Notes under the pieces: generated by a model
What the model was told of the DNA's origin: nothing
The model's input: only the letters and a program-made list of their open reading frames with translations
Database searches by the model: none
Origin: Chloroflexota bacterium
Lineage (GTDB): Bacteria; Chloroflexota; Limnocylindria; Limnocylindrales; CSP1-4
Length of the DNA: 64,000 nucleotides
Direction of reading: 5' to 3'
Assembly (NCBI GenBank): GCA_046328155.1
Contig: JAXLXC010000001.1
Location: forward strand, 133,222-197,221
Part shown: positions 323 to 18,081 of the stretch, piece by piece
Position numbering within the stretch: the stretch's first letter is position 1
Layout of the letters: every line of letters starts with the position of its first letter
Made by a program: the position numbers and the translations under genes

Positions 323-419
323 GCGGTGGGGGACCTCCCCGACGGTGGTCGACATGGCGCGGATGCGAACGACGGGGCCCGCCCAGGTCGGACGGACCCC
401 GTCGGTTCGATCGAGGAGC

Positions 420-1814: not shown

Positions 1815-1892
1815 CGAATGCTCCTCCGGTGGTCCTTCCTGCCTGCGCGACCGGTCCGGTCGCGTCCGCCCTGGAACGGGTCTCGCCTCACG

Positions 1893-3653
1893 TCATCCGC
1901 GCCCTCCCTCCCATGCCAGCGGAGGGGTTGGCACGCGGAGCCACGCCGTTGCGTCGGCGGGCAGCCGCCCGTCGACGATGGGCGCGCTGGCGAGCAGCGG
2001 TGATGTGCCCGCGGGCAGCGGCACCGCCGCGGGCGACAGGTTGGCGAGGCACGCGAAGCCATCGCCGCGCGCGAACGAGAGGATGTCCGTGGGGGTGCGC
2101 AGCCAACGGAAGCCGCCGCGCAACGCCGGCTCGGCATGCCGGATGGCGAGCATCTCGCGGTACAGCCAGAGCATCGAGCGGGGGTCCGCGAGCTGGGCCT
2201 CCACGGTGAGGTCGGCCCACCCCGCCGGCTGTGGGAGCCATGGCTCGCCACGGGCACCGGCGGGGCTGAAACCGAACGGCGGGGTCGTGCCGGACCATGG
2301 CAATGGCACGCGGCAGCCATCACGCCCGGGGTCGGTGCCCCCCGAGCGGTGGTACATGGGGTCCTCGATCCGCTCGGCGGGGATGTCGGCGACCTCGTCC
2401 AGGCCCAGCTCGTCCCCCTGGTAGATGTAGAGCGCGCCGGGGAGGGCGCCCACCAGGAGCGCCGCGGCCCGCGCGCGCCGACGCCCGAGGTCGAGGTCGG
2501 TGGGGATGCCCTGGCGCTTGCGCAGGAACGCGAACGAGCTGTCCTCGCGACCGAGGCGGGTCACGGGACGGGTGACGTCGTGGTTCGAGAGGACCCACGT
2601 GGCGGGCGCCCCGATGGGCGCGTGCGCGGCGAGCGTGCGGTCGATCGAGGCCCGCAGCGCCTCGGCCGCCCACGGCTGCTCCAGGAAGTCGAAGTTGAAG
2701 GCCGTGTGCAGCTCGTCGGGCCGGAGGTACAGCGCGAAGCGGTCCACGTCCGGCAGCCACACCTCGCCCACCAGGATCCGCGTGCCCGGGTAGCCGTCGG
2801 CGACCGCGCGCCAGCCGCGGTAGATGTCGTGCAGCTCGTCGCGGTCGGTGTTGGGGTGTCCGCCCGGCGGCACGACGCTGCCGGGTGCCGGCTCCTCGGG
2901 GAGCGCCGGGTCCTTGACCAGCAGCGCCGCGGAGTCGATGCGCACCCCCGCGGCTCCTCGGTCGAACCAGAACCGGAGGATGTCCTCGTGCTCCCGACGC
3001 ACGTCCGGATGCCCCCAGTTGAGGTCCGGCTGACGCACCGAGAAGAGATGCAGGTACCACTCGCCCGGCGACCCGTCGGGATCGGTCGTGCGGGTCCAGG
3101 TGGTGCCCGAGAAGTTGCTGCGCCAGCTCGTGGGCATGACCGAGCCGTCCGGGCCCTTGCCGGGATGGAACCAGAACCGGGCGCGCTCGGGGGAGCCGGG
3201 TCCCGCGGCCAGCGCCGCCTGGAACCACCGGTGCTGGTCGGAGACGTGGTTGGGGACCACGTCGATGATGGTCCGGATGCCCATCCCAAGGGCCTCGGCG
3301 ATGAGCGCCTCCGCCTCCGCGAGGGTCCCGAACCGCGGGTCGATCGCACGATAGTCGGCGACGTCGTAGCCGCCGTCCGCGAGGGGCGAGACGTACCACG
3401 GGGTGATCCAGATGGCGTCGATGCCCAGGTCGCGCAGATAGCCCAGACGGGACCGGATGCCCGCGATGTCGCCGATGCCGTCGCCGTTCGCGTCCGCGAA
3501 GCTGCGTGGATAGACCTGGTAGATGACCGCGTCCCGCCACCAGGCCGGGTCATCGTCCGGGGGCGACACCGGCGTGTCGGCGGACGTCGTCGGGCGTGTC
3601 GGCACGGCAGGCGCGATGGTGGCCGGGACTGTCAGGCCGGTGGCTTCCGCCAC
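1893..3653 (-). CDS. GH13 alpha-glucosidase / oligo-1,6-glucosidase-like enzyme
   Basis: 586-aa ORF with a GTG start and GGAGGA RBS. Hallmark GH13 motifs are present: WWRDAVIYQVYPRSFADANGDGIGD, IDVVPNHVSDQH, GVRIDSA, VGEVW and LSNHD. Confidence 0.9.
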   Translation of the reverse strand: MAEATGLTVPATIAPAVPTRPTTSADTPVSPPDDDPAWWRDAVIYQVYPRSFADANGDGIGDIAGIRSRLGYLRDLGIDAIWITPWYVSPLADGGYDVADYRAIDPRFGTLAEAEALIAEALGMGIRTIIDVVPNHVSDQHRWFQAALAAGPGSPERARFWFHPGKGPDGSVMPTSWRSNFSGTTWTRTTDPDGSPGEWYLHLFSVRQPDLNWGHPDVRREHEDILRFWFDRGAAGVRIDSAALLVKDPALPEEPAPGSVVPPGGHPNTDRDELHDIYRGWRAVADGYPGTRILVGEVWLPDVDRFALYLRPDELHTAFNFDFLEQPWAAEALRASIDRTLAAHAPIGAPATWVLSNHDVTRPVTRLGREDSSFAFLRKRQGIPTDLDLGRRRARAAALLVGALPGALYIYQGDELGLDEVADIPAERIEDPMYHRSGGTDPGRDGCRVPLPWSGTTPPFGFSPAGARGEPWLPQPAGWADLTVEAQLADPRSMLWLYREMLAIRHAEPALRGGFRWLRTPTDILSFARGDGFACLANLSPAAVPLPAGTSPLLASAPIVDGRLPADATAWLRVPTPPLAWEGGRG

Positions 3654-3782
3654 GACGCTCCATCCTCCGTGACCCTGTGCTACCGATCGGCAACCTCAGC
3701 GGGTCTCGGATGGAACGTACCATATCGGACAACAGTAACGCAAGAACTTGACAAGCAAGCGAAGGAGTCCGCGAGGTGACGC

Positions 3783-4796
3783 CTAGGAGGCGGGGCTGAC
3801 GGGCCCCGTGGAGCCGCGGACCACCAGCTCCGGGCGGAAGCGGAGCTCGTCGAGGGGGACGCTGCGACCCTCGATCTGGGCGATGAGCAGCTCGATGACC
3901 ATGCGGCCCATGGCCTCGATGGGCTGCCGGACCGTGGTCAGCGGCGGCTCCGTGCAGTTCATGAGCGCCGAGTCGTCGTAGCCCACGATGGACACGTCGC
4001 CCGGCACGCCCAAGCCCAGCTGGCGGGCGGCGCGGATGGCGCCCAGGGCCATCGGGTCGCTGGCGCACACGATCCCGGTGACCCCCGTGCGCAGCAGCCG
4101 GACCGCGGCCGCCTGGGCCGCCTCGAGCGAGTACAGCGAGCGCACGACGTGGGACGCGGGCAGGGCGATCCCGGCCCGAACGGCGACCGTCTGCGCCGCT
4201 TCCAGCTTCCGGTTCGATGGGATGTGGTCGGCGGGGCCCAGCAGCAGGCCGATACGGCTGTGGCCGAGGGAGACGAGATGGCCCATCGCCTGCTCCGCGG
4301 CCACCGCGTCGTCGCACACCACGGCCGGGAACCCCAGGCCGTCGATGGCCGCGTTGACCAGCACCGTGGGCAGGTTGCGCTGGGTCAGCTCGGCGTAGTG
4401 GTCGTGGGGGGCGTTCGCCTGCGCGTACAGACCGCCCGCGAACACCACCCCGCTCACCTGGTGCTGGAGCAGCAGCTCGATGTAGTCCGCCTCCGTCACG
4501 CCGCCCGCCGTCTGGGTGCACAACACGGCGGTGTAGCCCTGCTGGGCGAGCGCGCCGCCGACCACCTCCGCGAACGCTGGGAAGATGGGGTTCTGGAGCT
4601 CCGGCAGGACCAGGCCCACGAGACGCGCCCGCTCGCCACGGAGCTTGGTGGGTCGCTCGTAGCCCAGGACGTCGAGCGCGGTCAGCACCGCCTGCCGAGT
4701 GGCCTCGCTGACGCCGGGCTTGCCGTTGAGCACCCGGCTCACGGTGGCCTCGCTCACCCCGACCTTGCGTGCGACCTCAGCCAGCCGTCGTGCCAT
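3783..4796 (-). CDS. LacI family transcriptional regulator
   Basis: 337-aa ORF with the N-terminal HTH VARKVGVSEATVSRVLNG and a periplasmic-binding-protein-like sugar-binding core. Confidence 0.9.
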   Translation of the reverse strand: MARRLAEVARKVGVSEATVSRVLNGKPGVSEATRQAVLTALDVLGYERPTKLRGERARLVGLVLPELQNPIFPAFAEVVGGALAQQGYTAVLCTQTAGGVTEADYIELLLQHQVSGVVFAGGLYAQANAPHDHYAELTQRNLPTVLVNAAIDGLGFPAVVCDDAVAAEQAMGHLVSLGHSRIGLLLGPADHIPSNRKLEAAQTVAVRAGIALPASHVVRSLYSLEAAQAAAVRLLRTGVTGIVCASDPMALGAIRAARQLGLGVPGDVSIVGYDDSALMNCTEPPLTTVRQPIEAMGRMVIELLIAQIEGRSVPLDELRFRPELVVRGSTGPVSPAS

Positions 4797-4814
4797 GCCG
4801 CAAGTCTATCGCAA

Positions 4815-4832
4815 GCAAACGCAAGTGTTTGC
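4815..4832. promoter_or_regulatory. candidate operator: inverted repeat GCAAAC-N6-GTTTGC in the LacI/hydrolase intergenic region
   Basis: The sequence gcaaacgcaagtgtttgc was read directly. It sits in an AT-richer stretch just upstream of the LacI start codon. The half-sites resemble LacI-family operators but the spacing is atypical. Confidence 0.3.
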
Positions 4833-4919
4833 AGTGTTTGACCGGACCGACCCTCATGGCCCGTCGTCGATGATGATTGGGCCCGCCCGCTCACGCGTCA
4901 GTCCCCAGGAGGCTGCGAC

Positions 4920-5681
4920 ATGTGCTTCGACACCGATTCCCACCCGCCCGTCGCACCCATCGCGGGTGCCGCCGTGGATGGGGCCCATCTGACGCTCCAG
5001 GCGGCGGATGGCAACCGGTTCACGGCCTATCGGACCCGCGCCACCACCCCGGGCCCGGCGCGGATGGTGGTGCTGCCGGACATCCGGGGCCTGTTCTCGT
5101 TCTACGAGGAGCTGGCGCTCCGGTTCGCGGAGGCGGGCATCGACGCCCTGGCCATCGACTACTTCGGGCGGACGGCGGGCGTGGGCACGCGGGACGCCGA
5201 CTTCGAGTTCCGGCCCCATGTCGACCAGACCACGTGGGCCGGGCTGTCCGCCGACATCGCGACGGGGGTGACGGCGCTGCGTGCCGACGCACCGGACGCG
5301 CGGGTGTTCGCGGTCGGCTTCTGCTTCGGCGGTCGGCTCGCCTTCGATGCCGCGACGCTGGTCTTGGGCCTCGCGGGCGTGATCGGCTTCTATGGCGTGC
5401 CGACCGGGCCGCGTCTTGACCTGCCGGCGCCGGCCGAGGTGGCGAGCGCCATGGCCTCGCCCGTCCTGGGCCTGTTCGGGGGTGCCGACCCAAGCATCCC
5501 CGCCGAGATGGTGGCGGCGTTCGGGGGCGCGCTGACGGGCGCGGGGGTCGAGCACGAGCTGGTGACGTACGAGGGCGCGCCCCACAGCTTCTTCGACCGC
5601 AAGGCCGCCGAGTTCGCTGCTGCCTCCGAGGACGCGTGGCGGCGCATCCTCGCCTTCGTTGAGCGCCATGTGACGTCCTGA
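4920..5681 (+). CDS. dienelactone hydrolase family protein
   Basis: 253-aa ORF with an AGGAGG RBS. Shows the DLH-like pattern VVLPDIRGLFSFYEELALRFAEAGIDALAIDYFGR and the nucleophile-elbow region VGFCFGG. Confidence 0.85.
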   Translation: MCFDTDSHPPVAPIAGAAVDGAHLTLQAADGNRFTAYRTRATTPGPARMVVLPDIRGLFSFYEELALRFAEAGIDALAIDYFGRTAGVGTRDADFEFRPHVDQTTWAGLSADIATGVTALRADAPDARVFAVGFCFGGRLAFDAATLVLGLAGVIGFYGVPTGPRLDLPAPAEVASAMASPVLGLFGGADPSIPAEMVAAFGGALTGAGVEHELVTYEGAPHSFFDRKAAEFAAASEDAWRRILAFVERHVTS

Positions 5682-5696
5682 GGTCGACGGCTACTC

Positions 5697-5885
5697 TCAA
5701 GATCCTAGAGTAGTTGCCAAGCTTCGGGGCTCGCCGGGCGAGCGCCGGAGCCGCCAGTAGCCACGCGGGTCGTTGGCGGACATGCGCACGGCCTCCACCA
5801 ACCCCGCCGTCTCCAGTCGATGCAGGTAGGTCAGGGCCGTCGGCCGCGAGACCCCCAGCAGCTGCACCGTCTCGGTCGTGGTCAC
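5697..5885 (-). CDS. small winged-helix DNA-binding protein (possibly the C-terminal remnant of a larger gene)
   Basis: 62 aa with a GTG start. The wHTH-like segment is ETVQLLGVSRPTALTYLHRLETAGLVEAV. The start overlaps, as GTGA, the stop of a very short upstream reading frame. Confidence 0.4.
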   Translation of the reverse strand: MTTTETVQLLGVSRPTALTYLHRLETAGLVEAVRMSANDPRGYWRLRRSPGEPRSLATTLGS

Positions 5886-6080
5886 TCGGCCACGCGCGCG
5901 AGATGCTCGGCGAAGCGCTCGGAACCGGCCGGCAGGTGCGCGCGGCCATCAGGAGGCATGTCCTGGGCCACCGACCCATCGACGATCGCCGGCCCTGCGG
6001 TGGGGCTCGGCGGCAGCGTGCGGCGTGCCGTGGCACCATCTCACCCCGATTGGGAGACCTGACCCACGGAGGCTCCACAC

Positions 6081-7283
6081 ATGCGCAGGATCGCGCTGGC
6101 CATCGCCGCCGGGCTCATGCTCGTCGCCACCACCGTCATCGCAGCCGAGCCGGATGACTCCAGCGGCGGCGTGGTGACACCCCTCATCAGTGGCCAGGAG
6201 CTGGCCGATTCGCTCATGGAGTGGGACGGCTACGACTTCGCGGACGCCGGTGACATCTGGCCGGGCGCGCTCCGCTCCGGCCCCTCGTCGCTCTCCGACC
6301 CCAACGACCCGTTCGGCGGCGACGGCACCATCTGGATCCTGCCGGAGCTGGACCAGCCCGCGCACGTCCTGGTGGAGGTGCGGCTGTCCGAGATGGCCAA
6401 CGCCTCGATCTGGGGCAACCTCCAGCGGATCATGGAGGAGCTGAGCCTCACCCCCGAGGAGCAGCAGGACGTCTACGCCGGCCTGGGCAAGGTCCTGGGC
6501 GCCGGCTACGCGGTGGCCGGCGACGACGAGGAGTCGTCGAACGCCGATGCGCCGTTCGCCGGCGGCGTGGCCCTGTGGCAGGTGCAGACCCGTGGCTTCG
6601 AGACCGTCCCCGACGGCCAGACCGCGCCCCTGGTGCCCATGCCTGACGGTGGCGTGACCCTGGAGATCGTGCCGGACGGCCAGGATTCGGCGGTGCTGCC
6701 GATGCCGGAGCCCACCCCCACGCCCACCATCGAGCCCACCCCCACGCCACGCAGGACCGCCAAGCCGACCGCCCGGCCGACGGCGACGCCCGCGTTCACG
6801 CAGGCCCCCTCGCCCAAGAACTGGGTGTGCGACGGCAGCGACACCATCATCCCGGATCCGCTGCTCAAGGGCTGGAACATCCAGCGCGTCAACTGGGGCA
6901 AGCGCAGCGGCTATGACCGGATCACCATCACGCTCAGCCGCTACAACTCGCTGGGCGGCAACGGCGCGCAGGCCATCACCCACGTGCTGGAATCCGACCA
7001 GGTGAGCTCCACGCTCAAGGTCAAGGAACCCAAGGACGGCGCCTGGTCCGTCGCGCTGGGGCTGTTCCAGGACGTCCGGCTAACGTGGTCGCTCGACCGG
7101 GAGCTGTCCGGGCTGGGTGCCGTCGAGGCCATCACCCTGGGCAAGGACAACAACGGCTACCCGTGGCTCGTGGTCGGGACGGACGAGGTGCCGCCCTGCT
7201 ACCAGCTCCAGGTGCCGGCGTGGACCGCCAGCAACCCCAAGAACCAGCAGTCCATCCAGGTGTTCCTGGACATCAAGAGCTGA
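6081..7283 (+). CDS. secreted hypothetical protein with a Pro/Thr-rich linker
   Basis: 400-aa ORF with a signal peptide (MRRIALAIAAGLMLVATTVIAAEP) and a PT-rich linker (PEPTPTPTIEPTPTPRRTAKPTARPTATP). No catalytic motif recognised. Confidence 0.7.
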   Translation: MRRIALAIAAGLMLVATTVIAAEPDDSSGGVVTPLISGQELADSLMEWDGYDFADAGDIWPGALRSGPSSLSDPNDPFGGDGTIWILPELDQPAHVLVEVRLSEMANASIWGNLQRIMEELSLTPEEQQDVYAGLGKVLGAGYAVAGDDEESSNADAPFAGGVALWQVQTRGFETVPDGQTAPLVPMPDGGVTLEIVPDGQDSAVLPMPEPTPTPTIEPTPTPRRTAKPTARPTATPAFTQAPSPKNWVCDGSDTIIPDPLLKGWNIQRVNWGKRSGYDRITITLSRYNSLGGNGAQAITHVLESDQVSSTLKVKEPKDGAWSVALGLFQDVRLTWSLDRELSGLGAVEAITLGKDNNGYPWLVVGTDEVPPCYQLQVPAWTASNPKNQQSIQVFLDIKS

Positions 7284-7345
7284 GGCACCGCGGGGCCCGG
7301 CGCCAGTCGGGCCCCCAGCGCCCATCGCCTATACTTCGGGACCCG

Positions 7346-7420
7346 GCCGACATAGCTCAGCGGTAGAGCAGCTGTTTCGTAAACAGCAGGTCCTCGGTTC
7401 AAATCCGAGTGTCGGCTCCA
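7346..7420 (+). tRNA. tRNA-Thr (anticodon CGU), CCA encoded
   Basis: Hand-folded cloverleaf. Acceptor stem GCCGACA/TGTCGGC, D stem GCTC/GAGC, anticodon stem GCTGT/ACAGC with loop TTCGTAA, T arm CTCGG-TTCAAAT-CCGAG, discriminator T followed by CCA. Confidence 0.9.
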
Positions 7421-7421
7421 C
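7384..7421 (+). repeat. direct repeat copy 1 (attL-like), equal to the 3' half of tRNA-Thr
   Basis: cagcaggtcctcggttcaaatccgagtgtcggctccac. Thirty nt are identical to 10849-10878, plus 7 more nt after a 1-nt indel. Confidence 0.85.
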
Positions 7422-7816
7422 CTTTCCCCGCACGAGATGGTGCCTCCTGGCACCACTGGGCCCGCGGCAGCAATGACCGGTAGCAGTCGGCGTACAGTGG
7501 CGCGCAAGCGCGATGGCCCCGAGGCTCTCACCCCGAGGCCACAAGGTCGCGCTCCTGTCTGGCGCAAGACGCCCAGCGCCCCCCAGATCGGCAAGGCGGT
7601 CGCGGACGCGTCGGGCACGGGACCGAAGGGCGACGGGGACCGCGAGCTGACGCGGGTGATGCGGCACCTGTCGCAGGTCGACAGCCACGAGGGGAACGAG
7701 CGCCTGTTCGGACGGTCGTCCGACAGGCTGGCGCGGCAAGTGCGCGACGCGCTCGGGACCAGGTGAAGGCGGTCGGCGGTCGGTCCGCGAGCACTGGTCT
7801 CTGAGAGGCGACGAGA

Positions 7817-8161
7817 TCATGGGCTCGCAAGAAGTCCTTCGACCATCATCACCGAGCTGGGATCATCGGACGTCCCCTTCAAGCAGGCATTCGAAACGTG
7901 GTCCCCTGCACGCATCCTGACTCTGCCTCGATCATCGAGAATCTCGAGCGAGGGTGCGAACCGTGCAGACCAGCCGGAAGGCCAGAGGAGCGGTGTCTGG
8001 TCTCCGGAGTCGTGGACGAGCCAGGCGATCCGGGGGTCCCCTGCGGCGCCGGCCAAGGTGGCTTCCACTGCAACCCCGCGACATCGCTCAGGGAACTCCG
8101 CGGCCGGCAGTGGACGCGCTGTCTGTGCGCCGCACCCGATCAGAAGCGCGGCGACCAGCAT
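7817..8161 (-). CDS. small putative lipoprotein
   Basis: An internal ATG at 8161 gives MLVAALLIGCGAQT..., with the lipobox LIGC. It is 114 aa and lies 62 bp downstream of the protease gene on the same strand. The longer track ORF (to 8401) has an Arg-rich, non-coding-looking N-terminus. Confidence 0.5.
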   Translation of the reverse strand: MLVAALLIGCGAQTARPLPAAEFPERCRGVAVEATLAGAAGDPRIAWLVHDSGDQTPLLWPSGWSARFAPSLEILDDRGRVRMRAGDHVSNACLKGTSDDPSSVMMVEGLLASP

Positions 8162-8223
8162 GATCGGCCACGCCGGCCCACGGCTCAAGGGATGGGCCCC
8201 CGGTCCCGGATCCGACGTCCGTT

Positions 8224-9480
8224 CTACTGGGTCACCACGGTCGCGTCGTAGGTGTTGAGTACGGTCTGGCGCTTGTGATCCCACGCGTAGCAGTGTTGCG
8301 CGTCGCCTCCCCGAGCGATGACGATGCCGCGGGCGCTGACGCCGCCGGACACCTCCCGGTGCACCCCGCCCCCGGAGTCGCCGCCCGAGCCCATGCTGCA
8401 ATTCGGACCCTGGGGAGCCTCCGTGAACGCGAGGCTGTTCGTGCAGCCCGACTCGTCGCAGAACTGCTCACTGAGCGAGTCGTAGGCGTAGCACACACGT
8501 AGGGTCGTGGCGCCGAACTGGCAGTAGACCACGCCCGTCGTGGGGTTCGCCGATCCGGTGACGGCCTTCGTCGTCGTCTGGTCATTCCACGCATACGACC
8601 GTGCGTTATACGCAGCTCCGTCGATGAGGACCAGATCGGGGTTCGGGAATCGTACGCCCTCGGTCGTACCGACCTGCTCGCTGTCGTTCCCGTTCCAGAC
8701 CGTGCGACCGTTGTTCCCGTTCGAGCAGTGGCCGGCAGTGACCATCACCGTTCCGTTCGTGTTGCTGTCGATGTAGAAACCCGTGGTGCAACCAGCATTG
8801 CCGATGTGGATGCGAGCGCCGCCACGGAACGGCGATGAATCACTGGTCCTGCTGGAGCGCGTGGCGTCGCCTCGCTCGTTCTTCCGGAGACGGAGGGTCT
8901 CGTCACGCCGGGCGTCGGCGACGTAATCCGAAGGCCGTCGGACGGACGCCGCGGCCTCCAGAGCGCGAACCACATCCTGCGTGTCGAAGGTCGCGTGGAC
9001 AATCACCGCGTCGCTGAGCGCGTCATACCCGGCGGAGGCGAAATCCCCGGGACCGTAGTTGAACGTGCGAAGTGCTTGCGATGCTGCGTCGATCACATCC
9101 TGGCCCACGCAACTGGGCGCGGCACGCACGTCCGACCCGGCGAGCCGCTCTCGCCAGGCCGCGAGGAATCGATCATCGACGACGACCGTGACGTCACGGC
9201 CGTCGAATACCACCGCCCGGAATCCGTCAGTCGCCTCGTACTTCGCCTGATGCGCCTCGAGTACGTCAGCTGCGGCGCCATCGAGGTTCGTTAGCACACG
9301 CTCGACAGACCCAGGGCAACTGGTCCGGTGGGAGACCTCCTCAGTCGTAAGCGCTGATGCACGTTCGCCCGCCGATGACGCAGCCCCCGGGACCCCGGTC
9401 GAAGCGGCAGCGACGAGGGCGGCTATGGGCAGGACCACAGTCACCCAGCGAATCGTCCGTGGTGCGAGGAGATGGGACAT
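8224..9480 (-). CDS. secreted S1 (chymotrypsin-fold, alpha-lytic/streptogrisin-like) serine protease with N-terminal pro-region
   Basis: Start at the ATG at 9480, preceded by GGAGG. Signal peptide MSHLLAPRTIRWVTVVLPIAALVAAAS. Catalytic motifs are TAGHC (His) and GDSGGG (Ser). The multiple Cys pairs are typical of S1E enzymes. Confidence 0.85.
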   Translation of the reverse strand: MSHLLAPRTIRWVTVVLPIAALVAAASTGVPGAASSAGERASALTTEEVSHRTSCPGSVERVLTNLDGAAADVLEAHQAKYEATDGFRAVVFDGRDVTVVVDDRFLAAWRERLAGSDVRAAPSCVGQDVIDAASQALRTFNYGPGDFASAGYDALSDAVIVHATFDTQDVVRALEAAASVRRPSDYVADARRDETLRLRKNERGDATRSSRTSDSSPFRGGARIHIGNAGCTTGFYIDSNTNGTVMVTAGHCSNGNNGRTVWNGNDSEQVGTTEGVRFPNPDLVLIDGAAYNARSYAWNDQTTTKAVTGSANPTTGVVYCQFGATTLRVCYAYDSLSEQFCDESGCTNSLAFTEAPQGPNCSMGSGGDSGGGVHREVSGGVSARGIVIARGGDAQHCYAWDHKRQTVLNTYDATVVTQ

Positions 9481-9626
9481 CACCAGCCTCCAATCCTGAC
9501 CTGCCGACGTGACTGGGCCGAACACCCCCGATCCCAGTCAACCAAGCAGCCGTCCAGTACGACGCGCGGACTCTCCTCGATGTTGCATCAGTCTGTCACC
9601 TCGCACCATGCGGTCGCGCTGAGGAC

Positions 9627-9770
9627 GTGGCGGGGCCTCGGCGCCGGCCGCGCTCGCGGTTCCACGATCTTCGGCATGCCGCCGCGACGTTCGTCCTGGC
9701 GCACGGCATGACGCTCGAGGACGTCAAACAGCTCCTCGCCCACGGCTCGCAAGGCAGCCGTGGGCGATGC
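9627..9770 (+). pseudogene. tyrosine recombinase/integrase C-terminal fragment
   Basis: Contains RFHDLRHAAATFVLAHGMTLEDVKQLLAHGS, which matches the conserved HxLRH...LGH box II region of phage-type integrases. No N-terminal or catalytic-Tyr part is present in frame. Confidence 0.5.
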
Positions 9771-10213
9771 GGGGGTCGAGTTGGTGCTGCGGCAGGCGGT
9801 GACATCAACGTTCGCTGGTCCCTCTGACCCGCGCCGCGACCGCGAGTTGTTATATGACACTCTGGTCCATCGGGTGCAGGGCGATGAGATCGACCTAAGG
9901 GCGGCCGACGCAGAGCTCGCGCGCTTGGCTGCTAGGGCGACCGCCTGGGTCGCGGAGTGGGCGATCCGATGGGCCGGCGCAGACGTGCACCCTGGTGGCG
10001 GGTGAACGCCCGCCCTCGATGATGCCGCCCGCGTGGTCGTCGAGGCCGTCGCCGATGTCCCGACGGGCGAGACGTTCGAGGCTGTGCTGGGGGTCATCGA
10101 CCCCGAGTCGGTGCCCTGGCTCGAGCGGGCCTACGCCGAGCTGGCGCCGGTGCAGGAGCCCGACGGCTACAGCGTGGCGCTCGCAGCGGCGTAGGCTTGA
10201 CACATGGTCTTGA

Positions 10214-10555
10214 GTGCGGGCGCCATCGGGCTCACTAGGCAACGTGCCCGCACTCGAGGCCTGTGGGGTTCATCTGCGATACGGTCGGCGAGGGTCTGCT
10301 GCGCTCTGCGAGTTCGCGATGGCCGCGCCACGGGGCTCAATCACCGCCCTCGTCGGGCCGAACGGTGCCGGCAAGTCGTCGCTCCTGAGATCGTTCGTTG
10401 GTTTCGAGCACCCGCAGCAGGGCGTGCTGCGGGTGCTGGGCCACGGTGTCCGGGCAGAGCGAGCCCCGGCACTCGCGAGTGTCGGCTACCTTGCCCAGGA
10501 TTCGCAGCTGTACCACGGCCTCACCGTGGCGCGTCACGTCGACCTCATGGAGCCT
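10214..10555 (+). pseudogene. ABC transporter ATP-binding protein, N-terminal fragment only
   Basis: Walker A (LVGPNGAGKSSLL) and the Q-loop region (YLAQDSQLY) are present. The signature motif, Walker B and H-loop are absent. The reading frame runs directly into unrelated sequence. Confidence 0.6.
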
Positions 10556-10585
10556 CCGAACGGGCTTCGACCGCGCCGACGCACT

Positions 10586-10845
10586 GTCGACACTCGAGTG
10601 GATGCGAAGACCGACCCCCGGGGCATCGTGACCACCTACGAGTACGATGGCTTGGGGAGCCAGACGCGCGTCATCCTCAACGATGTCGCTGGCTCCTCGT
10701 CCGAGGGCGACGAGGACCTGAGCGAGCGGACCTGGTATGACACCATCGGGTATGTGGCCGCGACCGAGGACCCGCGCGGCACGGTCACCCGGCACATCAC
10801 CGACGTGCTCGGCCGCGAGACCAAGACGATCCAGCAGGCCTCGGT
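10586..10845 (+). pseudogene. RHS/YD-repeat protein internal fragment
   Basis: YD repeats DPRGIVTTYEYDGLGSQTRV and YDTIGYVAATEDPRGTVTRHITDVLGRETKT. It lies in the same ORF as the ABC fragment and ends at the att-like repeat. Confidence 0.6.
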
Positions 10846-10878
10846 TCAAATCCGAGTGTCGGCTCCACAACCCCGTCG
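10842..10878 (+). repeat. direct repeat copy 2 (attR-like), a partial duplicate of the tRNA-Thr 3' half
   Basis: cagcaggcctcggttcaaatccgagtgtcggctccac. It lacks the tRNA 5' half, so it is not a second tRNA gene. Confidence 0.85.
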
Positions 10879-10981
10879 CCGCCTCCGAGCTGCCGAGCAC
10901 GGCACATGGATGTCCTCGCCAAGATGCCGCCCGCATCGGCGACACATGCGCCAGCGTGACGTGCTCACGCCCTTGGCGCTG

Positions 10982-11018
10982 AGTCTAATGACTCTTAGAC
11001 TAATCTGATTTAGACTAA
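10982..11018. promoter_or_regulatory. AT-rich repeat cluster upstream of the first ATPase gene
   Basis: AGTCTAA-N6-TTAGACT inverted repeat (10982-11001) plus a second TTAGACTAA copy at 11010-11018. Roughly 35% GC in a ~70% GC genome. Confidence 0.45.
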
Positions 11019-11024
11019 CACCCC

Positions 11025-12569
11025 ATGGATCAGCAGGACCTCGGTCTGGTCGACGTCGACCAGACCATCATGCGAATCGCCGAGGCGCATCCGGACCGGG
11101 TCCGCCTGGAGGAGACCACGCCCCTCCGTCGCCGATTCATCGATCGGCATGTCGAGCAAGCGGTCCTTGCCGACGCATGGAACTCTGGTCGGGCCGAGCT
11201 CGTCCACCTGCATGGTCGTCGTCGTGTGGGCAAGAGCGCGCTCCTGGGCCGGTTCGCCGAAGGACGCCATATCGCCTACTACGTGGCAGCGCAGCAGCTT
11301 GAGGCCGCACAGCTCACGGACCTGGGCGAGGTGCTCGGGCCGCTCTCCACCGGGTTCCGGCCCGGCCGGCCGCCGCGGCTCGCGATCCGGGACTGGGCCG
11401 AGCTGCTCGACGTCCTCACCGATGCCGCGCGCCGGAGCAGGGTCGGCCTCATCCTCGACGAGTTCCCGTACCTCATCGAGGCGAACGAGAGCCTCCCATC
11501 GCTCATCCAGCGTTGGTGGGACCGCGTTGGCTCCAAAGCCGATCTCGTCCTGGTCCTCGCGGGCTCCCATCAGGCCATGATGCGAAGCCTGCTCGATCCG
11601 GACGGCGCCCTCCATGGCAGGCCCACCCGTCGACTCGAGGTTCGACCCCTCGATTACTTCCACGCGGGCAGGTTCATGGCCCGGTGGTCGCCGGAGGACC
11701 GCGTGCGCGCATACGCCGTTGCTGGAGGGATGCCGGCGTACCTCGAGCGCTTCGACGACCGGCACCCCTTCCGCTACGAGCTGTACCGGGTCGCGTACTC
11801 GCCGGACGGACGCCTGTTCCAGGAGGCACCAGAGCTGCTCAGCCGGGAGTTCACCGAGCCACGGACCTATGAGTCCGTGCTCCGGGCCATCGCGAGCGGC
11901 TACGTGACCCCGAGCGAGATCGCCCAACAGGCGGGCCTCTCGGGCGCGAACCGGGTCGGGCCGTACATCGACCGGCTCATCCAGCTCGGCATGGTGCGCA
12001 GGGTCACGCTCCCGTCCGAAGCACAGGAGGTGCGCCCGCGAATCAGCCGATACGTCCTCGCCGATCAGTATCTGCGCTTCTACTTCGCCCTGGTCGACCC
12101 ATGGCGGAGCGCCATCCAGCAGGGCCGAGGCGGGCCAGTCCTCGACCACCTCTGGCCGGAAGCATTCGACCAGTTCGTGAGCCGGGCGTTCGAGGACGTC
12201 GCCGTGCAGTATCTGCTGCGCCTCAGCGGAGCGCAGGAGCTGCCGCCCGTGTCGTCGTCCGGTCCATGGTGGTTCACGGGGGGCGGCGACATCGATGCCG
12301 TGACGATGACTGGCAACGTCATGACCGCGGCAGCCGAGGCCAAGTGGACCACCGAGTACCTCAAGCCCGGCGACCTGGCGGAGCTTCGGACGAACGTCGC
12401 CAGAGCGCAACGAGGGGCGACGCCACGACTCTTCGGGTTCTCGCGGTCGGGCTTCGACCGTCATCTCCGCGATGAGACCGACCTCACGCAGGTCAAGCTC
12501 CGAGACCTGTACCGTGCTGACCTCGACTACGAGCGACGCACGGACGCCTGGTTGACCGCACGGCCGTAG
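11025..12569 (+). CDS. AAA+ ATPase (archaeal-ATPase/PF01637-like), wHTH and DUF234 (PD-(D/E)xK-like) protein
   Basis: 514-aa ORF, with an alternative start at 11070. Walker A HGRRRVGKSALL, Walker B GLILDEFPYL, wHTH TPSEIAQQAGLSGANRVGPYIDRLIQLGMV. The C-terminal GDIDAV-x11-AEAKW fits a D...ExK nuclease motif. Confidence 0.85.
   Translation: MDQQDLGLVDVDQTIMRIAEAHPDRVRLEETTPLRRRFIDRHVEQAVLADAWNSGRAELVHLHGRRRVGKSALLGRFAEGRHIAYYVAAQQLEAAQLTDLGEVLGPLSTGFRPGRPPRLAIRDWAELLDVLTDAARRSRVGLILDEFPYLIEANESLPSLIQRWWDRVGSKADLVLVLAGSHQAMMRSLLDPDGALHGRPTRRLEVRPLDYFHAGRFMARWSPEDRVRAYAVAGGMPAYLERFDDRHPFRYELYRVAYSPDGRLFQEAPELLSREFTEPRTYESVLRAIASGYVTPSEIAQQAGLSGANRVGPYIDRLIQLGMVRRVTLPSEAQEVRPRISRYVLADQYLRFYFALVDPWRSAIQQGRGGPVLDHLWPEAFDQFVSRAFEDVAVQYLLRLSGAQELPPVSSSGPWWFTGGGDIDAVTMTGNVMTAAAEAKWTTEYLKPGDLAELRTNVARAQRGATPRLFGFSRSGFDRHLRDETDLTQVKLRDLYRADLDYERRTDAWLTARP
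11043..11066. promoter_or_regulatory. perfect 24-bp palindrome GGTCTGGTCGACGTCGACCAGACC
   Basis: Read directly from the sequence. It lies between the annotated ATG (11025) and an in-frame ATG at 11070, so it is either an operator/5'-UTR hairpin or is encoded in the first 15 codons. Confidence 0.5.
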
Positions 12570-12572
12570 GCG

Positions 12573-14036
12573 TCAGGACCCGGTGTAGATGCGCGCGAGG
12601 TCGACGAGTTCGAGGTCCGGGCGACCGGCCGCCTCGGCGACGAGGTCGGGCGAGAAGCCGGAGCGACCGAAGAGGATCAAGCGGGCCCTCGCCGCATCGC
12701 ACCGCCCCGCGAGAAGCGTTCTGCTCTTCTCGAGCTTCTTGAGGTCACCTGTCGTCCGCTTGGCACTGCCACCCTTGGCCTCGCCGACGGCGAGCACCTT
12801 GGGACGCTTCGCGTTGGGGTTGCCCTCGACGGCCACCACGTCAAGCTCGGCCATGCTCCTGGCTGCGGCGTCATTGATCTGGGTCGATCCGACGACCGAC
12901 GGGCGACCGCCCAGAGTCGTCTCGCCCGCGAACTGGCGGGTCCAGATCCGGGCCATCTCCTCGAAGTGCGGTCCGAGCACAGAGGACTCGAAGGTCGCTC
13001 GCGCGTCGGCCCATGCCTCGGCAGTGCGTCGGTCCTCGAAGCGGGCGAGGTCTCGCCGGACGACGGCGAAGTGGAACCGAAGATAGGGGTCCACCAGCCG
13101 CACGACAGGGCGCTTCGCCCGCCAGAGGTCGTCGTCGCGTCTGATGAACGAGGCGTCCTCGAGCACCTTGAGCGGGTAGCGCAGCGCCGAGTCGTCGCGG
13201 GCAAGCACCTTGCCGATGCCTGTGCGGGTGGTGTTTCCCTCCGCAATCGCCGCGAGCACGGACTGATAGAGTGCGCGGTCCGTGATGGCCGGGTCCTCCG
13301 TGAGGACGTAGTCCGCCTCCCGGAACAGGGCGCTCGAGGGATCGAGCATCCCCTCGATGAGCCACGTCTCGAACTCATCTGGTGTCTGCGGCGCAGCATC
13401 CGAGAGAAGCGGCCGATAGCCTGGGGTGCCTCCAAGGACCGCGTTGACGAGGAATGCCGTCCCGGGATCCGTGATGCCCCAGTAGTCGGCTGCCTGTCGG
13501 AAGTCGAACGGGGCCATGAGGGTGTCGAGGCTGACACGGCCCCGCAGGGCCTTCTGGCCCGAGAGCAGATCGGTCATGACCGAAAGTGCCGAACCGCACA
13601 GCACCAGGCGGAAGGGTGGGCCGGCAGCCGAACGCGCAGCGTCGAACGCGGCCTGGATGACGGAGGGCAGTTCGGGCGACTTGGCGATCAGGTAGGGGAA
13701 CTCGTCAAGGACGACCAGACGGTCGGGACCGGCGCGCCGGATCAACTCGTCGAATGCCGCGACCCAGTCGGGGTATGTGATCGTGCCGGAGACTCCGGCA
13801 TCGGCCGCGATCAGACGGCCGATCCGGGTGAGGGCCGGCTCACGCTCCTCCTCGAGCGCCTGGTGATAGAGGCCCCCTGTCAGGGTGGAGAAGGAGCGCA
13901 GGACATATGACTTGCCTTGACGCCGGCGTCCGTAGACGAGACCGATCGCGGGCGCTGGCCGCCGAATGAAGGTCTCCAGGTCCGCCCACTCCCGGTCGCG
14001 GTCGAAGAGGATGTCGGGCTTCATCTCACGAACCAT
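12573..14036 (-). CDS. AAA+ ATPase, wHTH and DUF234 (PD-(D/E)xK-like) protein, paralogue of 11025..12569
   Basis: The real start is at the ATG at 14036 or 14024 (MVREMKPDILFDRDREW...). The upstream 117 codons of the track ORF are Arg-rich junk. Walker A YGRRRQGKSYVL, Walker B LVVLDEFPYL. C-terminal ELDVVAV-x14-VGEAKG. Confidence 0.85.
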   Translation of the reverse strand: MVREMKPDILFDRDREWADLETFIRRPAPAIGLVYGRRRQGKSYVLRSFSTLTGGLYHQALEEEREPALTRIGRLIAADAGVSGTITYPDWVAAFDELIRRAGPDRLVVLDEFPYLIAKSPELPSVIQAAFDAARSAAGPPFRLVLCGSALSVMTDLLSGQKALRGRVSLDTLMAPFDFRQAADYWGITDPGTAFLVNAVLGGTPGYRPLLSDAAPQTPDEFETWLIEGMLDPSSALFREADYVLTEDPAITDRALYQSVLAAIAEGNTTRTGIGKVLARDDSALRYPLKVLEDASFIRRDDDLWRAKRPVVRLVDPYLRFHFAVVRRDLARFEDRRTAEAWADARATFESSVLGPHFEEMARIWTRQFAGETTLGGRPSVVGSTQINDAAARSMAELDVVAVEGNPNAKRPKVLAVGEAKGGSAKRTTGDLKKLEKSRTLLAGRCDAARARLILFGRSGFSPDLVAEAAGRPDLELVDLARIYTGS

Positions 14037-14043
14037 GATAAGG

Positions 14044-14073
14044 GTAAGTCGACTTACGGTAAGTCGAGTTACC
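14044..14073. promoter_or_regulatory. tandem palindromes GTAAGTCGACTTAC and GGTAAGTCGAGTTACC just upstream of the second ATPase gene
   Basis: Read directly, 8-37 bp upstream of the ATG at 14036, in a locally AT-richer segment. Confidence 0.5.
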
Positions 14074-14149
14074 CCTCCCGGCGCGTCTCGGCGACGGCAC
14101 CGATTCGGAGATCGCCGCCGCCACGCCTCGCACGGCGCCGTGGCACCTA

Positions 14150-14321
14150 TCGCGAGGCGGCCCGTCCATCGGGGAGAACCCTCGCCACGAGTCGGGCGGC
14201 CACGATCCGGGTGGCGACGCACGGTCGCCGTAGCGTCCCAGGCCCGGGGTGGCTGGCCGAGCCGTTCACCCAGTGGGTCATCGAGGACCGCTGCCCGCAA
14301 GCCCGCCCGCCGCGGGCGTGA
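14150..14321 (+). pseudogene. possible mannitol-dehydrogenase-family remnant
   Basis: The only support is the short, characteristic stretch LAEPFTQWVIEDR. There is no start and no N-terminal domain, and the region is overlapped by the 3' end of the opposite-strand gene. Confidence 0.3.
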
Positions 14322-15147
14322 ACCCCTCGGCCCGCAGCAGGTCGTCGAGGCGGTCCAGGAGGCGGTCCACGCGGACGCCCAGCCCATCGAGGTCGGTGGT
14401 CGCGGTGCGGAGCAGCTCCTCGATGTCGTGAGCCATGCCCGTGGGACGCCGGGGACACTCGCGGCTCATCGCCTCCACCAGCCGCTTCTCGCCCGGGTGG
14501 GTGCGCCGGTTGAGCGCGAACACGATGTCCGCGTAGCTCGCGAGGAGCCCCGTCAGCCGGTGCTGGATGCTGACCAGGTCCCGGCGCGCGACCGCCGCGG
14601 CCAGCTGGTTGGCGTAGGAGGGCAACACCGCCCGCAGGACCGGGTGGTTCCGAGTGACGATGCTGGCCCGGAGCGCCTCGGGGTATGGCACGTCGACGCG
14701 TGCCTGGAGGCGCCGCAGCCAGCCCGTCTCGTCCGCGAGCACGACGCACCCGCGGACCGTATGCCAGAAGCAGGTCGTGTAGCCCAAGCTCGCCTCGTGA
14801 CGGTCGAGCACCGCGGCGACGCGGTCCTCCATCCATGCGGCGTCGAAGAACACGACGTCCACATGCGTCCCCGTCGGCGCATGCAGCCACTCGTCGCCAG
14901 GTCCCCAGAAGTCCATGCCGAGGTCCGAGCGCGTCGCCCCGCCCAGCGCGGCCACGAGGTCCCGTCGGTCGGCCACCGGGACATCGCCCCGGGTGTAGAC
15001 CTCGAGGTCCAGGTCGGACGCGTCGTCCGGACCGAGCCCGCCATGGCCACGCGATCCGCCCATGGCCACCGCCACGACGCCCGGGAGCACCGCCAGCCCC
15101 TGTGCCACCCGTGCCGCCAGGTCGGCCACCTGCCCGACCTCGGTCAT
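14278..15147 (-). CDS. nucleotidyltransferase-domain protein (DUF4037-like)
   Basis: Start at the ATG at 15147 (MTEVGQVADLAARV...). NTase motif GGSRGHGGLGPDDASDLDLEVY. The ATGA overlap with the TetR stop suggests translational coupling. Confidence 0.75.
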   Translation of the reverse strand: MTEVGQVADLAARVAQGLAVLPGVVAVAMGGSRGHGGLGPDDASDLDLEVYTRGDVPVADRRDLVAALGGATRSDLGMDFWGPGDEWLHAPTGTHVDVVFFDAAWMEDRVAAVLDRHEASLGYTTCFWHTVRGCVVLADETGWLRRLQARVDVPYPEALRASIVTRNHPVLRAVLPSYANQLAAAVARRDLVSIQHRLTGLLASYADIVFALNRRTHPGEKRLVEAMSRECPRRPTGMAHDIEELLRTATTDLDGLGVRVDRLLDRLDDLLRAEGFTPAAGGLAGSGPR

Positions 15148-15719
15148 CGTCTGCGGGCCCCGCGCTGGCCCAGCGCCACGACGAGACGCTCCACCCCGAA
15201 GTGGAAGGCGGCGTCCGGGTCGCCGCCCAGCCGGAATGCCCCGGCCAGCTCCATGGACACGAAGCCGCTGGCCCACGCGGTCAGCAGGCGTGCAGCCGCC
15301 AGCGCGTCTCCGGGCCCCGCGAGCGCGGCGGCGACCCGCAGGACGGGCTCGGCCGCCCGTCGGTTGACCTCGGCATCCACCCGCTGATCCTGAGGCACGC
15401 GAGCGAGCAGCAGCGCAAAGGCGCCGGGTCGGGCATGCCCGAACGCCCGATACGCCGCCGCCAGGGCAGCGAGGTCGTCGCCCGGCGAGACGCCCCGGAT
15501 GCTCGCCGCGAGCGCCTGTGTCAGGTCCGCCAGCACGGCGGTGGCGACCAGGCGCACCAGGTGGTCGCGGTCGCGGACGTGCTTGTACAGCGATGGCGCA
15601 CGGACCCCCACCTCGACCGCGACGCGTCGCATCGTCAGGCCATCGATTCCCTCGGCCTCCAGGATCCGCTGCCCGGCATGGACGATGGCATCGATGGAGG
15701 TCCGGGCGGGAGCTGGCAC
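15144..15719 (-). CDS. TetR/AcrR family transcriptional regulator
   Basis: 191 aa with the N-terminal HTH LTMRRVAVEVGVRAPSLYKHV. Confidence 0.9.
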   Translation of the reverse strand: MPAPARTSIDAIVHAGQRILEAEGIDGLTMRRVAVEVGVRAPSLYKHVRDRDHLVRLVATAVLADLTQALAASIRGVSPGDDLAALAAAYRAFGHARPGAFALLLARVPQDQRVDAEVNRRAAEPVLRVAAALAGPGDALAAARLLTAWASGFVSMELAGAFRLGGDPDAAFHFGVERLVVALGQRGARRR

Positions 15720-15740
15720 TGGTCGTCGACCCCCGGGTTC

Positions 15741-15803
15741 TAAGGCTATTGACAGTAGCCATGAATGCTACGCATCATAGCCTTGATACGCCAAGGATAG
15801 CCA
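15741..15803. promoter_or_regulatory. divergent TetR/MBL promoter region with repeated TAGCC/GGCTA motifs
   Basis: aaGGCTAttgacagTAGCCatgaatgctacgcatcaTAGCCttgatacgccaaggaTAGCC. This is an AT-richer intergenic region, and the TAGCC copies are spaced about two helical turns apart. Confidence 0.4.
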
Positions 15804-15825
15804 CTCATCGAGGACCACGGAAGCC

Positions 15826-16578
15826 ATGCGAGTCGCGGACGGGCTGCACCGATTGGGCAACGGCACGGTCAACTGCTATCTGGTGGCCGACGGGTCCGAG
15901 GTCAGCATCATCGACGCCGGCGTCCCAGGCTACTGGGGCGACCTGCCCCGGGACCTCGCTGCGATGGGCCGCACGCTGGACGACGTCCGTGCGGTCGTGC
16001 TCACGCATGGGCACACCGATCACATCGGCTTCGCCGAGCGGCTCCGCCGGGAGCGACACATCCCCGTCCGCGTGCACGAGTTCGACGCCGCGCTGGCTCG
16101 GGGTGAGGTGCCCAACCCGGCCAAGGGCCTCGGTCCGACGCGGATCCGGCCGCTGCTCGAGTTCCTGGCCTACACCGCACGACGCGGCGGTCTGCGAATC
16201 ACCTACCTGACGGAGGTCGCGACGTTTGGCGACGGCGCCACCCTGGACGTGCCGGGCGCGCCGCGGGTGGTGCTGGTGCCGGGACATACGCCCGGGAGCG
16301 TCGCGCTGCACATGCCCAGCCACGACGCGCTGTTCGTGGGCGACGCACTCGCGACACGCGCCGTGACCACTGGCGAGACCGGCCCGCGGCTGGCGCCGTT
16401 CACCGCCGACGCCGACCAGGCCCTGGCGTCGCTGGCGCGGCTGGAGACGCTCGACGCCGGGCTGGTCCTGCCGGGGCACGGCGAGGCGTGGGCGGGCGGG
16501 GTCGCGGAGGCGGTCAGGCTCGTGCGGGCGGCGGGCATCCGGGGGCGCCCGGGGCGCGGGACCGGCACGGACGGCTGA
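15826..16578 (+). CDS. MBL-fold metallo-hydrolase
   Basis: 250 aa with the metal-binding motif VVLTHGHTDHIGF. Confidence 0.9.
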   Translation: MRVADGLHRLGNGTVNCYLVADGSEVSIIDAGVPGYWGDLPRDLAAMGRTLDDVRAVVLTHGHTDHIGFAERLRRERHIPVRVHEFDAALARGEVPNPAKGLGPTRIRPLLEFLAYTARRGGLRITYLTEVATFGDGATLDVPGAPRVVLVPGHTPGSVALHMPSHDALFVGDALATRAVTTGETGPRLAPFTADADQALASLARLETLDAGLVLPGHGEAWAGGVAEAVRLVRAAGIRGRPGRGTGTDG

Positions 16579-16602
16579 CCCGACCTGCCATGCTGTCGCC
16601 GC

Positions 16603-16958
16603 ATGGGCACCGTCGCCGACTACATCGCCGAGCTCGACGAGCCGGCACGCTCGCTGCTGGCAGGCTATCGGTCGCGCGCGCTTGGCCTGGTGCCTGACGC
16701 GGACGAGGGCACCAGCTACGGCATGGCGGCGCTGCGCCATCGTGGGCGACCGCTGGTCGCGATCCTCGTCACCAGGGCCGGCTACTCCGCGTACCCGTTC
16801 AGCCCGGCGGTGGTGGCTCGCGTGATGGCGACGCTGGAGGGTTCGAAGGGACCAAGGGCGGCATCCGGTTCACGGACGAGCGACCGCTCCCGGACGAGGC
16901 CTTCGATTCGCTGGTCCTCGCCCGCCGCGACGAGATCGACGCGGCGCTGGCTCGCTGA
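16603..16958 (+). pseudogene. DUF1801 (YdhG-like) protein interrupted by one frameshift
   Basis: The first frame gives MGTVADYIAELDEPARSLL...VMATLEG. The expected C-terminus, FEGTKGGIRFTDERPLPDEAFDSLVLARRDEIDAALAR*, continues in another frame from about 16842. The total length of 356 nt is not divisible by 3. Confidence 0.65.
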
Positions 16959-16967
16959 GCGCCGCCG

Positions 16968-17003
16968 CCTACTGGACGGTGACCGCCTACTGGACGGTGA
17001 CCG
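16968..17003. repeat. perfect 18-bp tandem duplication (cctactggacggtgaccg x2)
   Basis: Read directly from the sequence. It duplicates the last codons plus the stop (VTVQ*) of the minus-strand CAP-domain gene. Confidence 0.9.
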
Positions 17004-17791: not shown

Positions 17792-18081
17792 TCGGCCTCC
17801 TCCCTGGGTCGGATCGGGGTCACGGTAGGCGGCGCCGCGTCCAGGTTCCATGGGAACCACGACGCCGTCATGTCGGCCCGGAGGTACCGTCCCCGCTCTC
17901 ATGCCAAGAGCCCCGGACCACACCGGTCCGGACACCCGACCACGTCGGCACCGACCGATCGCGCATCCCTCCAGGCATGCGCGACAGGGCTCGCCACCCG
18001 TGGACACGACCCACGAGGGCGCACGGCCCGGCGCGGCTGGGGCGACCGCTACCTACCGGGGCAACTCATCGCACGGGCTGT

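Follow-up and report, generated by a model that had tools for sequence, protein, structure and literature searches.

A probable decayed integration relic at tRNA-Thr(CGU) of an uncultured Chloroflexota bacterium and a genus-wide insertion hotspot at the same gene

Introduction

What is the origin of the 3.4 kb of largely fragmentary DNA that directly follows a tRNA-Thr(CGU) gene in a Chloroflexota genome and ends in a second, partial copy of that tRNA? The stretch of DNA analysed here (the window) is 64,000 nucleotides (nt) long and corresponds to C1:133222-197221 of a metagenome-assembled genome (MAG) that is 84% complete, with 122 contigs and about 72% GC. An original prediction, made from the letters of the window, described a decayed integrative island behind the tRNA gene. 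The analysis supports this description through the deviant GC content of the interval, the variable content of the locus among relatives, an insertion hotspot in 20 of 48 other genomes of the genus, and a phage that carries a matching attachment site (attP). Positions 7422-10868 are very likely an immobile and strongly degraded remainder of DNA that a tyrosine integrase inserted into the 3' part of tRNA-Thr(CGU). As such, the interval is an ordinary dead relic of tRNA integration, a fresh instance of a well-known kind.

The 48 other genomes served as the genus comparison for repeat counts and for the protease encoded in the interval. The closest of the compared genomes, G017, shares 83% DNA identity with the window in the gene upstream of the tRNA. 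The nearest comparisons are between species.

A direct repeat of the tRNA 3' part

The two ends of the interval are marked by the following features.

7346-7420, + strand: intact tRNA-Thr(CGU) (ARAGORN; Rfam RF00005, 72.6 bits), the integration target on the attB/attL side
7384-7421, + strand: proximal repeat copy, from the anticodon-stem 3' strand through CCA plus 1 nt, with an exact block at 7392-7421
7422-7480, + strand: post-tRNA flank with a GGTGCC/GGCACC hairpin, a loose fit to the consensus found after every repeat copy in relatives
10832-10868, + strand: distal repeat copy, 37 nt of the tRNA 3' part, read as a relic attR

The tRNA gene is the sole copy of its isoacceptor in the assembly. 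A repeat search of the window finds an exact 30-nt direct repeat, 7392-7421 and 10839-10868, made up of the last tRNA nucleotides plus one flanking base. Read directly, the bases just upstream are CAGCAGG at both 7384-7390 and 10832-10838, and T7391 is absent from the distal copy, giving agreement at 37 of 38 positions. Thus, the predicted pattern of 30 identical nt plus 7 more after a 1-nt indel is found by the repeat search and by direct reading alike. The 37/38-nt repeat of the tRNA 3' half itself stands; its distal copy had been placed at 10842-10878, 10 nt to the right of the true position, and the distance between the copies, given as 3.46 kb, measures 3410-3417 nt. A 25-mer of the repeat, GGTTCAAATCCGAGTGTCGGCTCCA, occurs twice in the window when up to 3 mismatches are allowed and not at all in 100 shuffles.

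The distal copy has no tRNA 5' half, as had been claimed. ARAGORN finds no tRNA there, and no Rfam signal appears even at E<=1, so the complete second tRNA gene that the original prediction had named as a possible objection is not present at this position. The copy begins at tRNA position 39, compared with position 30/31 in relatives, and carries the 1-nt deletion; it is without the anticodon-loop part and without both flank motifs of the copies in relatives (37 nt versus 46 nt). No internal repeat remnant is found in 7422-10831.

Gene remnants between the repeat copies

The DNA between the copies consists of two intact genes and a series of fragments.

7562-7766, + strand: internal/C-terminal fragment of a phage tail tape-measure gene, about 65 codons, the second half of an open reading frame (ORF) at 7437-7766
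7817-8161, - strand: intact gene for a small lipoprotein (lipobox LLIGC; GC at third codon positions, GC3, 0.71), partner of the protease
8224-9480, - strand: intact gene for a secreted S1 protease of the streptogrisin/alpha-lytic type, with signal peptide and pro-region (GC3 0.79)
9582-9749, + strand: tyrosine-integrase fragment, about 57 codons (PF00589 positions 126-158, E 3e-5; PHROG integrase)
9760-10194, + strand: two start-less, coding-looking fragments (ORFs; GC3 0.76 and 0.94)
10214-10595, + strand: N-terminal piece of an ABC-transporter ATPase, about 125 codons (PF00005 positions 6-80 of 137; NCBIfam)
10596-10831, + strand: RHS/YD-repeat fragment (PF05593), in frame with the ABC fragment

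The tape-measure fragment starts about 140 nt from the tRNA. It has 91% nucleotide identity to the end of contig C16 of the same genome and 83% to C56:19239-19359, also of the same genome, and the encoded protein matches as well. The ORFs on C16 and C56 match PHROG tape-measure families, and C56 also encodes a portal protein. The fragment falls within the approximately 400 bp (7422-7816) that had been described as unassigned DNA, a description that no longer holds, and its presence there indicates that part of the relic is prophage. A PHROG scan finds no other phage or conjugation genes in the island. The two contigs have features of their own: C56 (34.5 kb) is prophage- or phage-like, with portal, tape-measure and tail genes, and its tape-measure frame shifts near 19017, while C16 (1.7 kb) holds a second tape-measure gene and ends inside a segment homologous to window positions 7562-7640.

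An integrase box-II fragment had been proposed at about 9640-9760; it is real and maps to 9582-9749, with a PF00589 match that falls below the curated cut-off. The fragment spans box II (HDLRH...LLAHGS) and ends right ahead of the catalytic Tyr. It aligns to residues 380-436 of full-length integrases of the genus with 61-79% identity. The suggested tblastn search for more integrase remnants was run over 7000-17500 with five full-length genus integrases and the integrase of the phage with the matching attP, and it returned the original fragment and no further pieces. An intact recombinase is likewise missing from 7000-17500 in Pfam scans and in the integrase tblastn, in agreement with the prediction, and no integrase linked to this att site is found in the assembly.

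The ABC-ATPase and RHS/YD debris that had been noted are matched by PF00005 and PF05593, respectively. The ABC fragment, whose nearest paralogue lies on C101 of the same genome, has kept Walker A and the Q-loop and has lost the signature motif and Walker B. The RHS fragment has 78% nucleotide identity to an RHS gene of the same genome (C35:164992-165214), and this homology ends at 10831, one base ahead of the tRNA-derived copy. ORF 10214-11008 (264 codons) is a chimera of ABC, RHS and tRNA pieces. The fragments at 9760-10194 have no Pfam, NCBIfam or PHROGs match.

A phage with a matching attP

A phage sequence from IMG/VR, L095 (IMGVR_UViG_3300045968_000086), contains the two features expected of an element that uses this tRNA.

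L095, 5041-6243, + strand: integrase
L095, 6273-6319, - strand: attP

L095 encodes a portal, a large terminase, a primase and an integrase, which identifies it as a phage fragment. Just past the 3' end of the integrase gene, tRNA positions 30-76 are repeated exactly over 47 nt; a 5' half is missing and no tRNA gene is present. The location of this attP beside an integrase indicates that there are temperate phages fitted to integrate into exactly this tRNA segment. The putative site directly supports the proposed integration mechanism, and it provides, together with the integrase, a ready enzyme-site pair for integration at tRNA-Thr.

The protease-lipoprotein pair

The lipoprotein and protease genes are the only intact genes between the repeat copies and are probably the sole functional cargo of the interval. 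They are also GC-poorer than their surroundings, as had been seen in the sequence (GC3 0.71 and 0.79 versus 0.90-0.95 in flanking genes). The protease has no Pfam or NCBIfam match and a weak PDB sequence match to 2sfa, a Streptomyces serine proteinase. An alignment with nine homologues places His251 in an invariant TAGHC, Ser369 in an invariant GDSGG, and Asp282 in an invariant Asp column; His251, Asp282 and Ser369 are thus the predicted catalytic triad.

None of the 48 other genus genomes has a close homologue of the protease, the best match being 30% identical, and homologues in uncultured samples reach 42-54% identity across most of the length. On one such contig, L072, a lipoprotein homologue (48.5% identity) directly follows the protease homologue. 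Protease and lipoprotein thus form a conserved pair. The pair at L072:5200-6826 adjoins RHS C-terminal toxin/immunity modules, and that at L070:6001-8214 adjoins a DUF6531 protein. On L070, the protease pro-region appears again in the next gene.

Composition and extent of the variable region

The island has a GC content of 67.9%, against a genome mean of 72.1% (standard deviation 1.9), which places it in the lowest 2.7% of genome windows of the same size. Together with the low GC3, this is the compositional shift for which the original prediction had proposed a check. The adjoining DNA at 10869-14300 likewise has 67.9% GC, and 7422-14300 taken jointly falls in the lowest 1.3% of windows.

Relatives carry other DNA at this place. 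In G017:C397 the same upstream gene and tRNA are followed by 17.7 kb without similarity to the window, after which synteny is back at 21838 (window 16992-19882 matches G017:C397:21838-24737 with 77% identity). G019 is syntenic upstream, with window 5-4833 and 6178-7438, and the 12 kb after its tRNA are unrelated. Metagenome contigs, too, have different content after the same tRNA. Identical content in all relatives, which would have spoken against an island, is therefore not what is seen: G017 and G019 carry unrelated DNA. Because synteny with G017 resumes only at about 16990, the variable region extends from 7422 to about 16990 (9.6 kb), and the repeat closes the first 3.4 kb of it. The rest of the region, and the first gene beyond it, are as follows.

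10869-14300, no strand: low-GC accessory block outside the repeat (GC 67.9%, GC3 0.84)
11025-12569, + strand, and 12573-14030, - strand: two ATPase_2/DUF234-type genes (Pfam)
14301-16986, no strand: remaining variable region, GC 73.1% and native-like, non-syntenic with G017
15144-15719, - strand: TetR gene
15826-16578, + strand: metallo-beta-lactamase-fold gene
From 16603: small ORF
16987-17871, - strand: gene for a CAP/fn3 secreted protein (Pfam), the first backbone gene shared with G017:C397

A homologue of the first ATPase (11025-12569) is present in G017, on another contig and with no att site nearby. In the window, the 50 positions just upstream of this gene (10975-11024) are AT-rich and contain repeated TAGACTAA motifs. 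A candidate mannitol-dehydrogenase remnant at 14150-14321 has no supporting match in the genome, in relatives or in Pfam. On the other side of the tRNA, window 4833-6178 holds a 1.1-kb insertion relative to G019:C56, with a dienelactone-hydrolase gene (4920-5681) and a small helix-turn-helix gene (5697-5885, - strand).

Repeat arrays at tRNA-Thr across the genus

The tRNA-derived repeat is widespread in the genus. Allowing up to 3 mismatches, its 37-nt core occurs at least twice in 20 of the 48 other genomes, with 1-8 extra 3' copies, and a control with the reversed pattern gives no matches. The genus maximum, nine copies, is reached in both G053 and G054. Copies downstream of the tRNA share its orientation. 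Most copies in relatives begin within the anticodon loop (tRNA position 30/31), giving 46 nt; several older-looking ones start at position 38-40, like that of the window, and these include the copy in G017, which lies 1.9 kb after the tRNA and bounds an island consisting of a single Fic gene. The repeat forms the centre of a conserved junction unit of about 130 nt, in which the 46 nt of the tRNA are preceded by a short motif (GTCCTCGCGA or GTACCTCT) and followed by a consensus of about 60-75 nt. No conserved RNA fold is found in the downstream consensus, for which RNAalifold predicts no pairs.

In 14 genomes, 36 intervals lie between repeat copies; they measure 0.8 to 42 kb, with 17 of them below 3.5 kb. 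Certain modules are present along their whole length in several genomes, where their array positions vary and their neighbours are unrelated. The Fic/DOC module, a single gene in 1.4 kb with the 46-nt repeat on both sides and no integrase, is present in seven genomes (80-87% identity to the G008 copy), where it occupies array position 1, 2 or 3.

L036:1221-2606: Fic module of G008
L035:15302-16666: Fic module of G020
L038:4000-5378: Fic module of G014
G006:C200, G021:C12, G051:C10 and G053:C5: further copies of the Fic module

A TPR module of 2.7 kb makes up interval 2 of G013, interval 7 of G053 and interval 4 of G054 (92-94% identity), and PIN (0.8 kb) and 5'-nucleotidase (2.0 kb) modules recur as well. 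The array at G053:C5:295904-348510 (L096-L098) contains nine repeat copies and that at G054:C1:369-27985 (L099-L100) five; the TPR, PIN and 5'-nucleotidase modules are shared between genomes, in differing orders.

Integrases are nearly absent from these arrays, where the sole PF00589 matches are frameshifted integrase pieces at G014:C11:73119-73620. Several array genomes have only two full-length Xer-like recombinases. Homologues of the C56/C16 phage proteins, of the island proteins or of the tested integrases are absent from the large intervals of G023 (41 and 28 kb), G009 (27 kb) and G014 (16 kb), and the 42-kb interval of G062 has neither a PF00589 match nor a match to the tested integrases. 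None of the modules of the window interval is shared with the array of any relative.

The array pattern suggests that the modules are recombination units mobilised in trans, for which a phage integrase or the two Xer-like recombinases may be the responsible enzymes. An alternative is shuffling through homologous recombination between junction units. A more far-reaching proposal, which we consider possible but rather doubtful, is that tRNA-Thr(CGU) anchors an integron-like array: integrase-less, often single-gene modules (Fic, PIN, TPR regulator, 5'-nucleotidase, PIG-L and others), each bounded by the junction unit of about 130 nt, would be captured, reordered and exchanged between species by a trans-acting recombinase, and the island in the window would be a collapsed dead end of this process.

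Origin of the interval

The order of events that we infer begins with an incoming element whose attP would have held a copy of the tRNA 3' part. A crossover within the shared segment would have kept the tRNA whole, because the copy brought by the element replaced its 3' end, and the original 3' part would have been displaced to the far end of the insert, giving the direct repeat. The inserted DNA would have been, at least in part, a tailed temperate phage. Later deletions would then have stripped nearly everything, leaving the tape-measure, integrase, ABC-ATPase and RHS pieces. One deletion or junction would have ended precisely at the left border of the distal repeat. Such an endpoint is the most likely reason for the abutment of the RHS homology on a truncated distal copy; the alternative is that the distal copy is short because the identity block was naturally shorter, as in G017. 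Lacking a recombinase, and with a distal site that is truncated and without flank motifs, the relic is probably fixed in place.

Several observations weigh against this account. Full-length integrases that adjoin tRNA-Lys(UUU) in four relatives are 71-79% identical to the integrase fragment, while the integrase of the phage with the tRNA-Thr attP reaches only 48%, over 27 residues. The fragment has the same direction as the tRNA, at a distance of 1.1 kb from the distal copy; going by the phage and the tRNA-Lys sites, an integrase would be expected next to the tRNA and in the opposite direction. The ABC and RHS pieces lie between the integrase fragment and the distal repeat, a misfit with a single collinear prophage. 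The low-GC block runs 3.4 kb past the repeat, to about 14300 (6.9 kb in total), so that the repeat is not a compositional boundary. In the proposed check for an empty site, content after the tRNA differs among relatives, and an empty site (the tRNA followed by sequence from 10869 or from about 16990 onward) was found in no relative, either by blastn and tblastx against 40 relatives or by scanning genome and metagenome contigs with the upstream protein; the polymorphism is thus seen only between species. Finally, a search with the exact protease product finds no independent assembly of the locus on record.

A parallel, distal arrangement does exist in G014, where the frameshifted integrase pieces lie about 230 nt before an att copy. 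Judging from the sequence comparisons, the parent of the integrase fragment may not be the enzyme behind the tRNA-Thr repeat. The resemblance of this fragment to Lys-type integrases, its parallel and distal placement, and the ABC/RHS debris ahead of the repeat together indicate that the debris probably came from more than one visitor or was rearranged. A tRNA-Lys remnant was considered as the source of the Lys-type fragment, and none was found in the island. The genome does contain a second tRNA-bounded island, on C31, where tRNA-Lys(UUU) (C31:57171-57246) has a 44-nt partial 3' copy (C31:74761-74804) 17.5 kb downstream; no PF00589 gene is detected on C31.

A different history, to which we give a lower but appreciable probability, would make the interval a collapsed multi-cassette array. 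Several modules would have lost their internal repeats, the protease pair would be one of these modules, and the phage and integrase pieces would stem from separate visitors. Intervals as short as this one make up 17 of the 36, the Fic, TPR, PIN and 5'-nucleotidase modules do recur at differing array positions, and the arrays of relatives, apart from the G014 pieces, are also without PF00589. Loss of an internal repeat is seen in interval 5 of G053, composed of the Fic module and the beginning of the module that follows it in G014, and in interval 4 of G054, where the TPR and PIN modules are joined. That the fragments are mixed in orientation and origin would suit several donors as well. However, no module of the interval is found in the array of any relative; nor is there an internal repeat remnant in 7422-10831, and elsewhere the protease pair is located in RHS/toxin loci rather than by tRNA repeats.

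Two explanations that do without integration fare less well. It is very improbable that the interval is an assembly artefact, a chimeric contig that brings different strains or loci together at or close to the short repeat, or at the phage-like fragment. The state of the MAG (84% complete, 122 contigs) leaves room for such an error, and C16 breaks off exactly within the segment homologous to 7562-7640, a sign that the assembly graph may be tangled there. C16, however, is only 91% identical to the window, and is therefore a separate copy rather than an alternative assembly path. A repeat of 30-37 nt is shorter than the final k-mers of most assemblers, the tRNA with downstream partial copies is also present on megabase contigs of relatives, and a single open frame runs without interruption across the ABC-RHS-tRNA junctions, where there is no N and no coverage-type break. 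Still less credible is that the distal copy is the remnant of a duplicated tRNA, a pseudogene unrelated to mobile DNA. Sequence identity alone speaks for it, and it is effectively refuted by the missing 5' half with no Rfam or ARAGORN signal, by a start where integration-derived copies start in relatives, by the mobile-element debris between the copies, and by the existence of a phage attP with the same segment. The integration relic thus remains the preferred explanation.

Comparison with known systems

Integration into tRNA genes is said to fall into sublocation classes, reportedly set out by Williams in 2002 (Nucleic Acids Research 30:866). The island shares with defective prophages and islets at tRNA genes an insert directly 3' of an intact tRNA (from 7422), a direct repeat of the tRNA 3' part with integrase and phage structural remnants, a deviant composition, and, in comparisons between species, content that varies among relatives. 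It departs from typical defective prophages in its extreme erosion, with no mobile-machinery gene longer than about 60 codons surviving, in the 37-nt rather than 46-nt length of its distal repeat, and in an integrase remnant that resembles tRNA-Lys-associated enzymes.

Cis-mobilizable elements (CIMEs) and tandem accretion have been described for ICESt1-type elements (PMC5704250), and that article cites Pavlovic et al. 2004 for CIMEs and accretion in elements of this type. As in accretion (PMC5704250), successive elements pile up at one tRNA at the present locus. Unlike a CIME, which by definition keeps functional attL and attR, the island has a distal site that is truncated and motif-less, and so presumably non-functional.

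In Prochlorococcus, repeated integrations at one tRNA push older elements outward, and the tRNA-flanked islands contain partial tRNAs and fragmented integrases (bioRxiv 10.1101/2020.12.28.424599). The window locus and the genus as a whole present the same picture as these tycheposon islands. The differences are that the organisms belong to another phylum, that no tycheposon-type replication/integration module is detected, and that many of the genus modules are single-gene and integrase-less.

Significance

The relic explains a pseudogene patch and the chimeric 264-codon ORF, marks the protease-lipoprotein pair as horizontally acquired cargo, and sets the left boundary of the 9.6-kb variable region. 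Beyond the single genome, it draws attention to one tRNA as a recurrent landing pad in a little-studied, uncultured genus of Chloroflexota, and it is mainly the genus-wide array of integrase-less cassettes at tRNA-Thr that makes the feature of interest. If a trans-acting recombinase does move the modules, tRNA-Thr would anchor a gene-cassette system from which defence and toxin genes could be mined.

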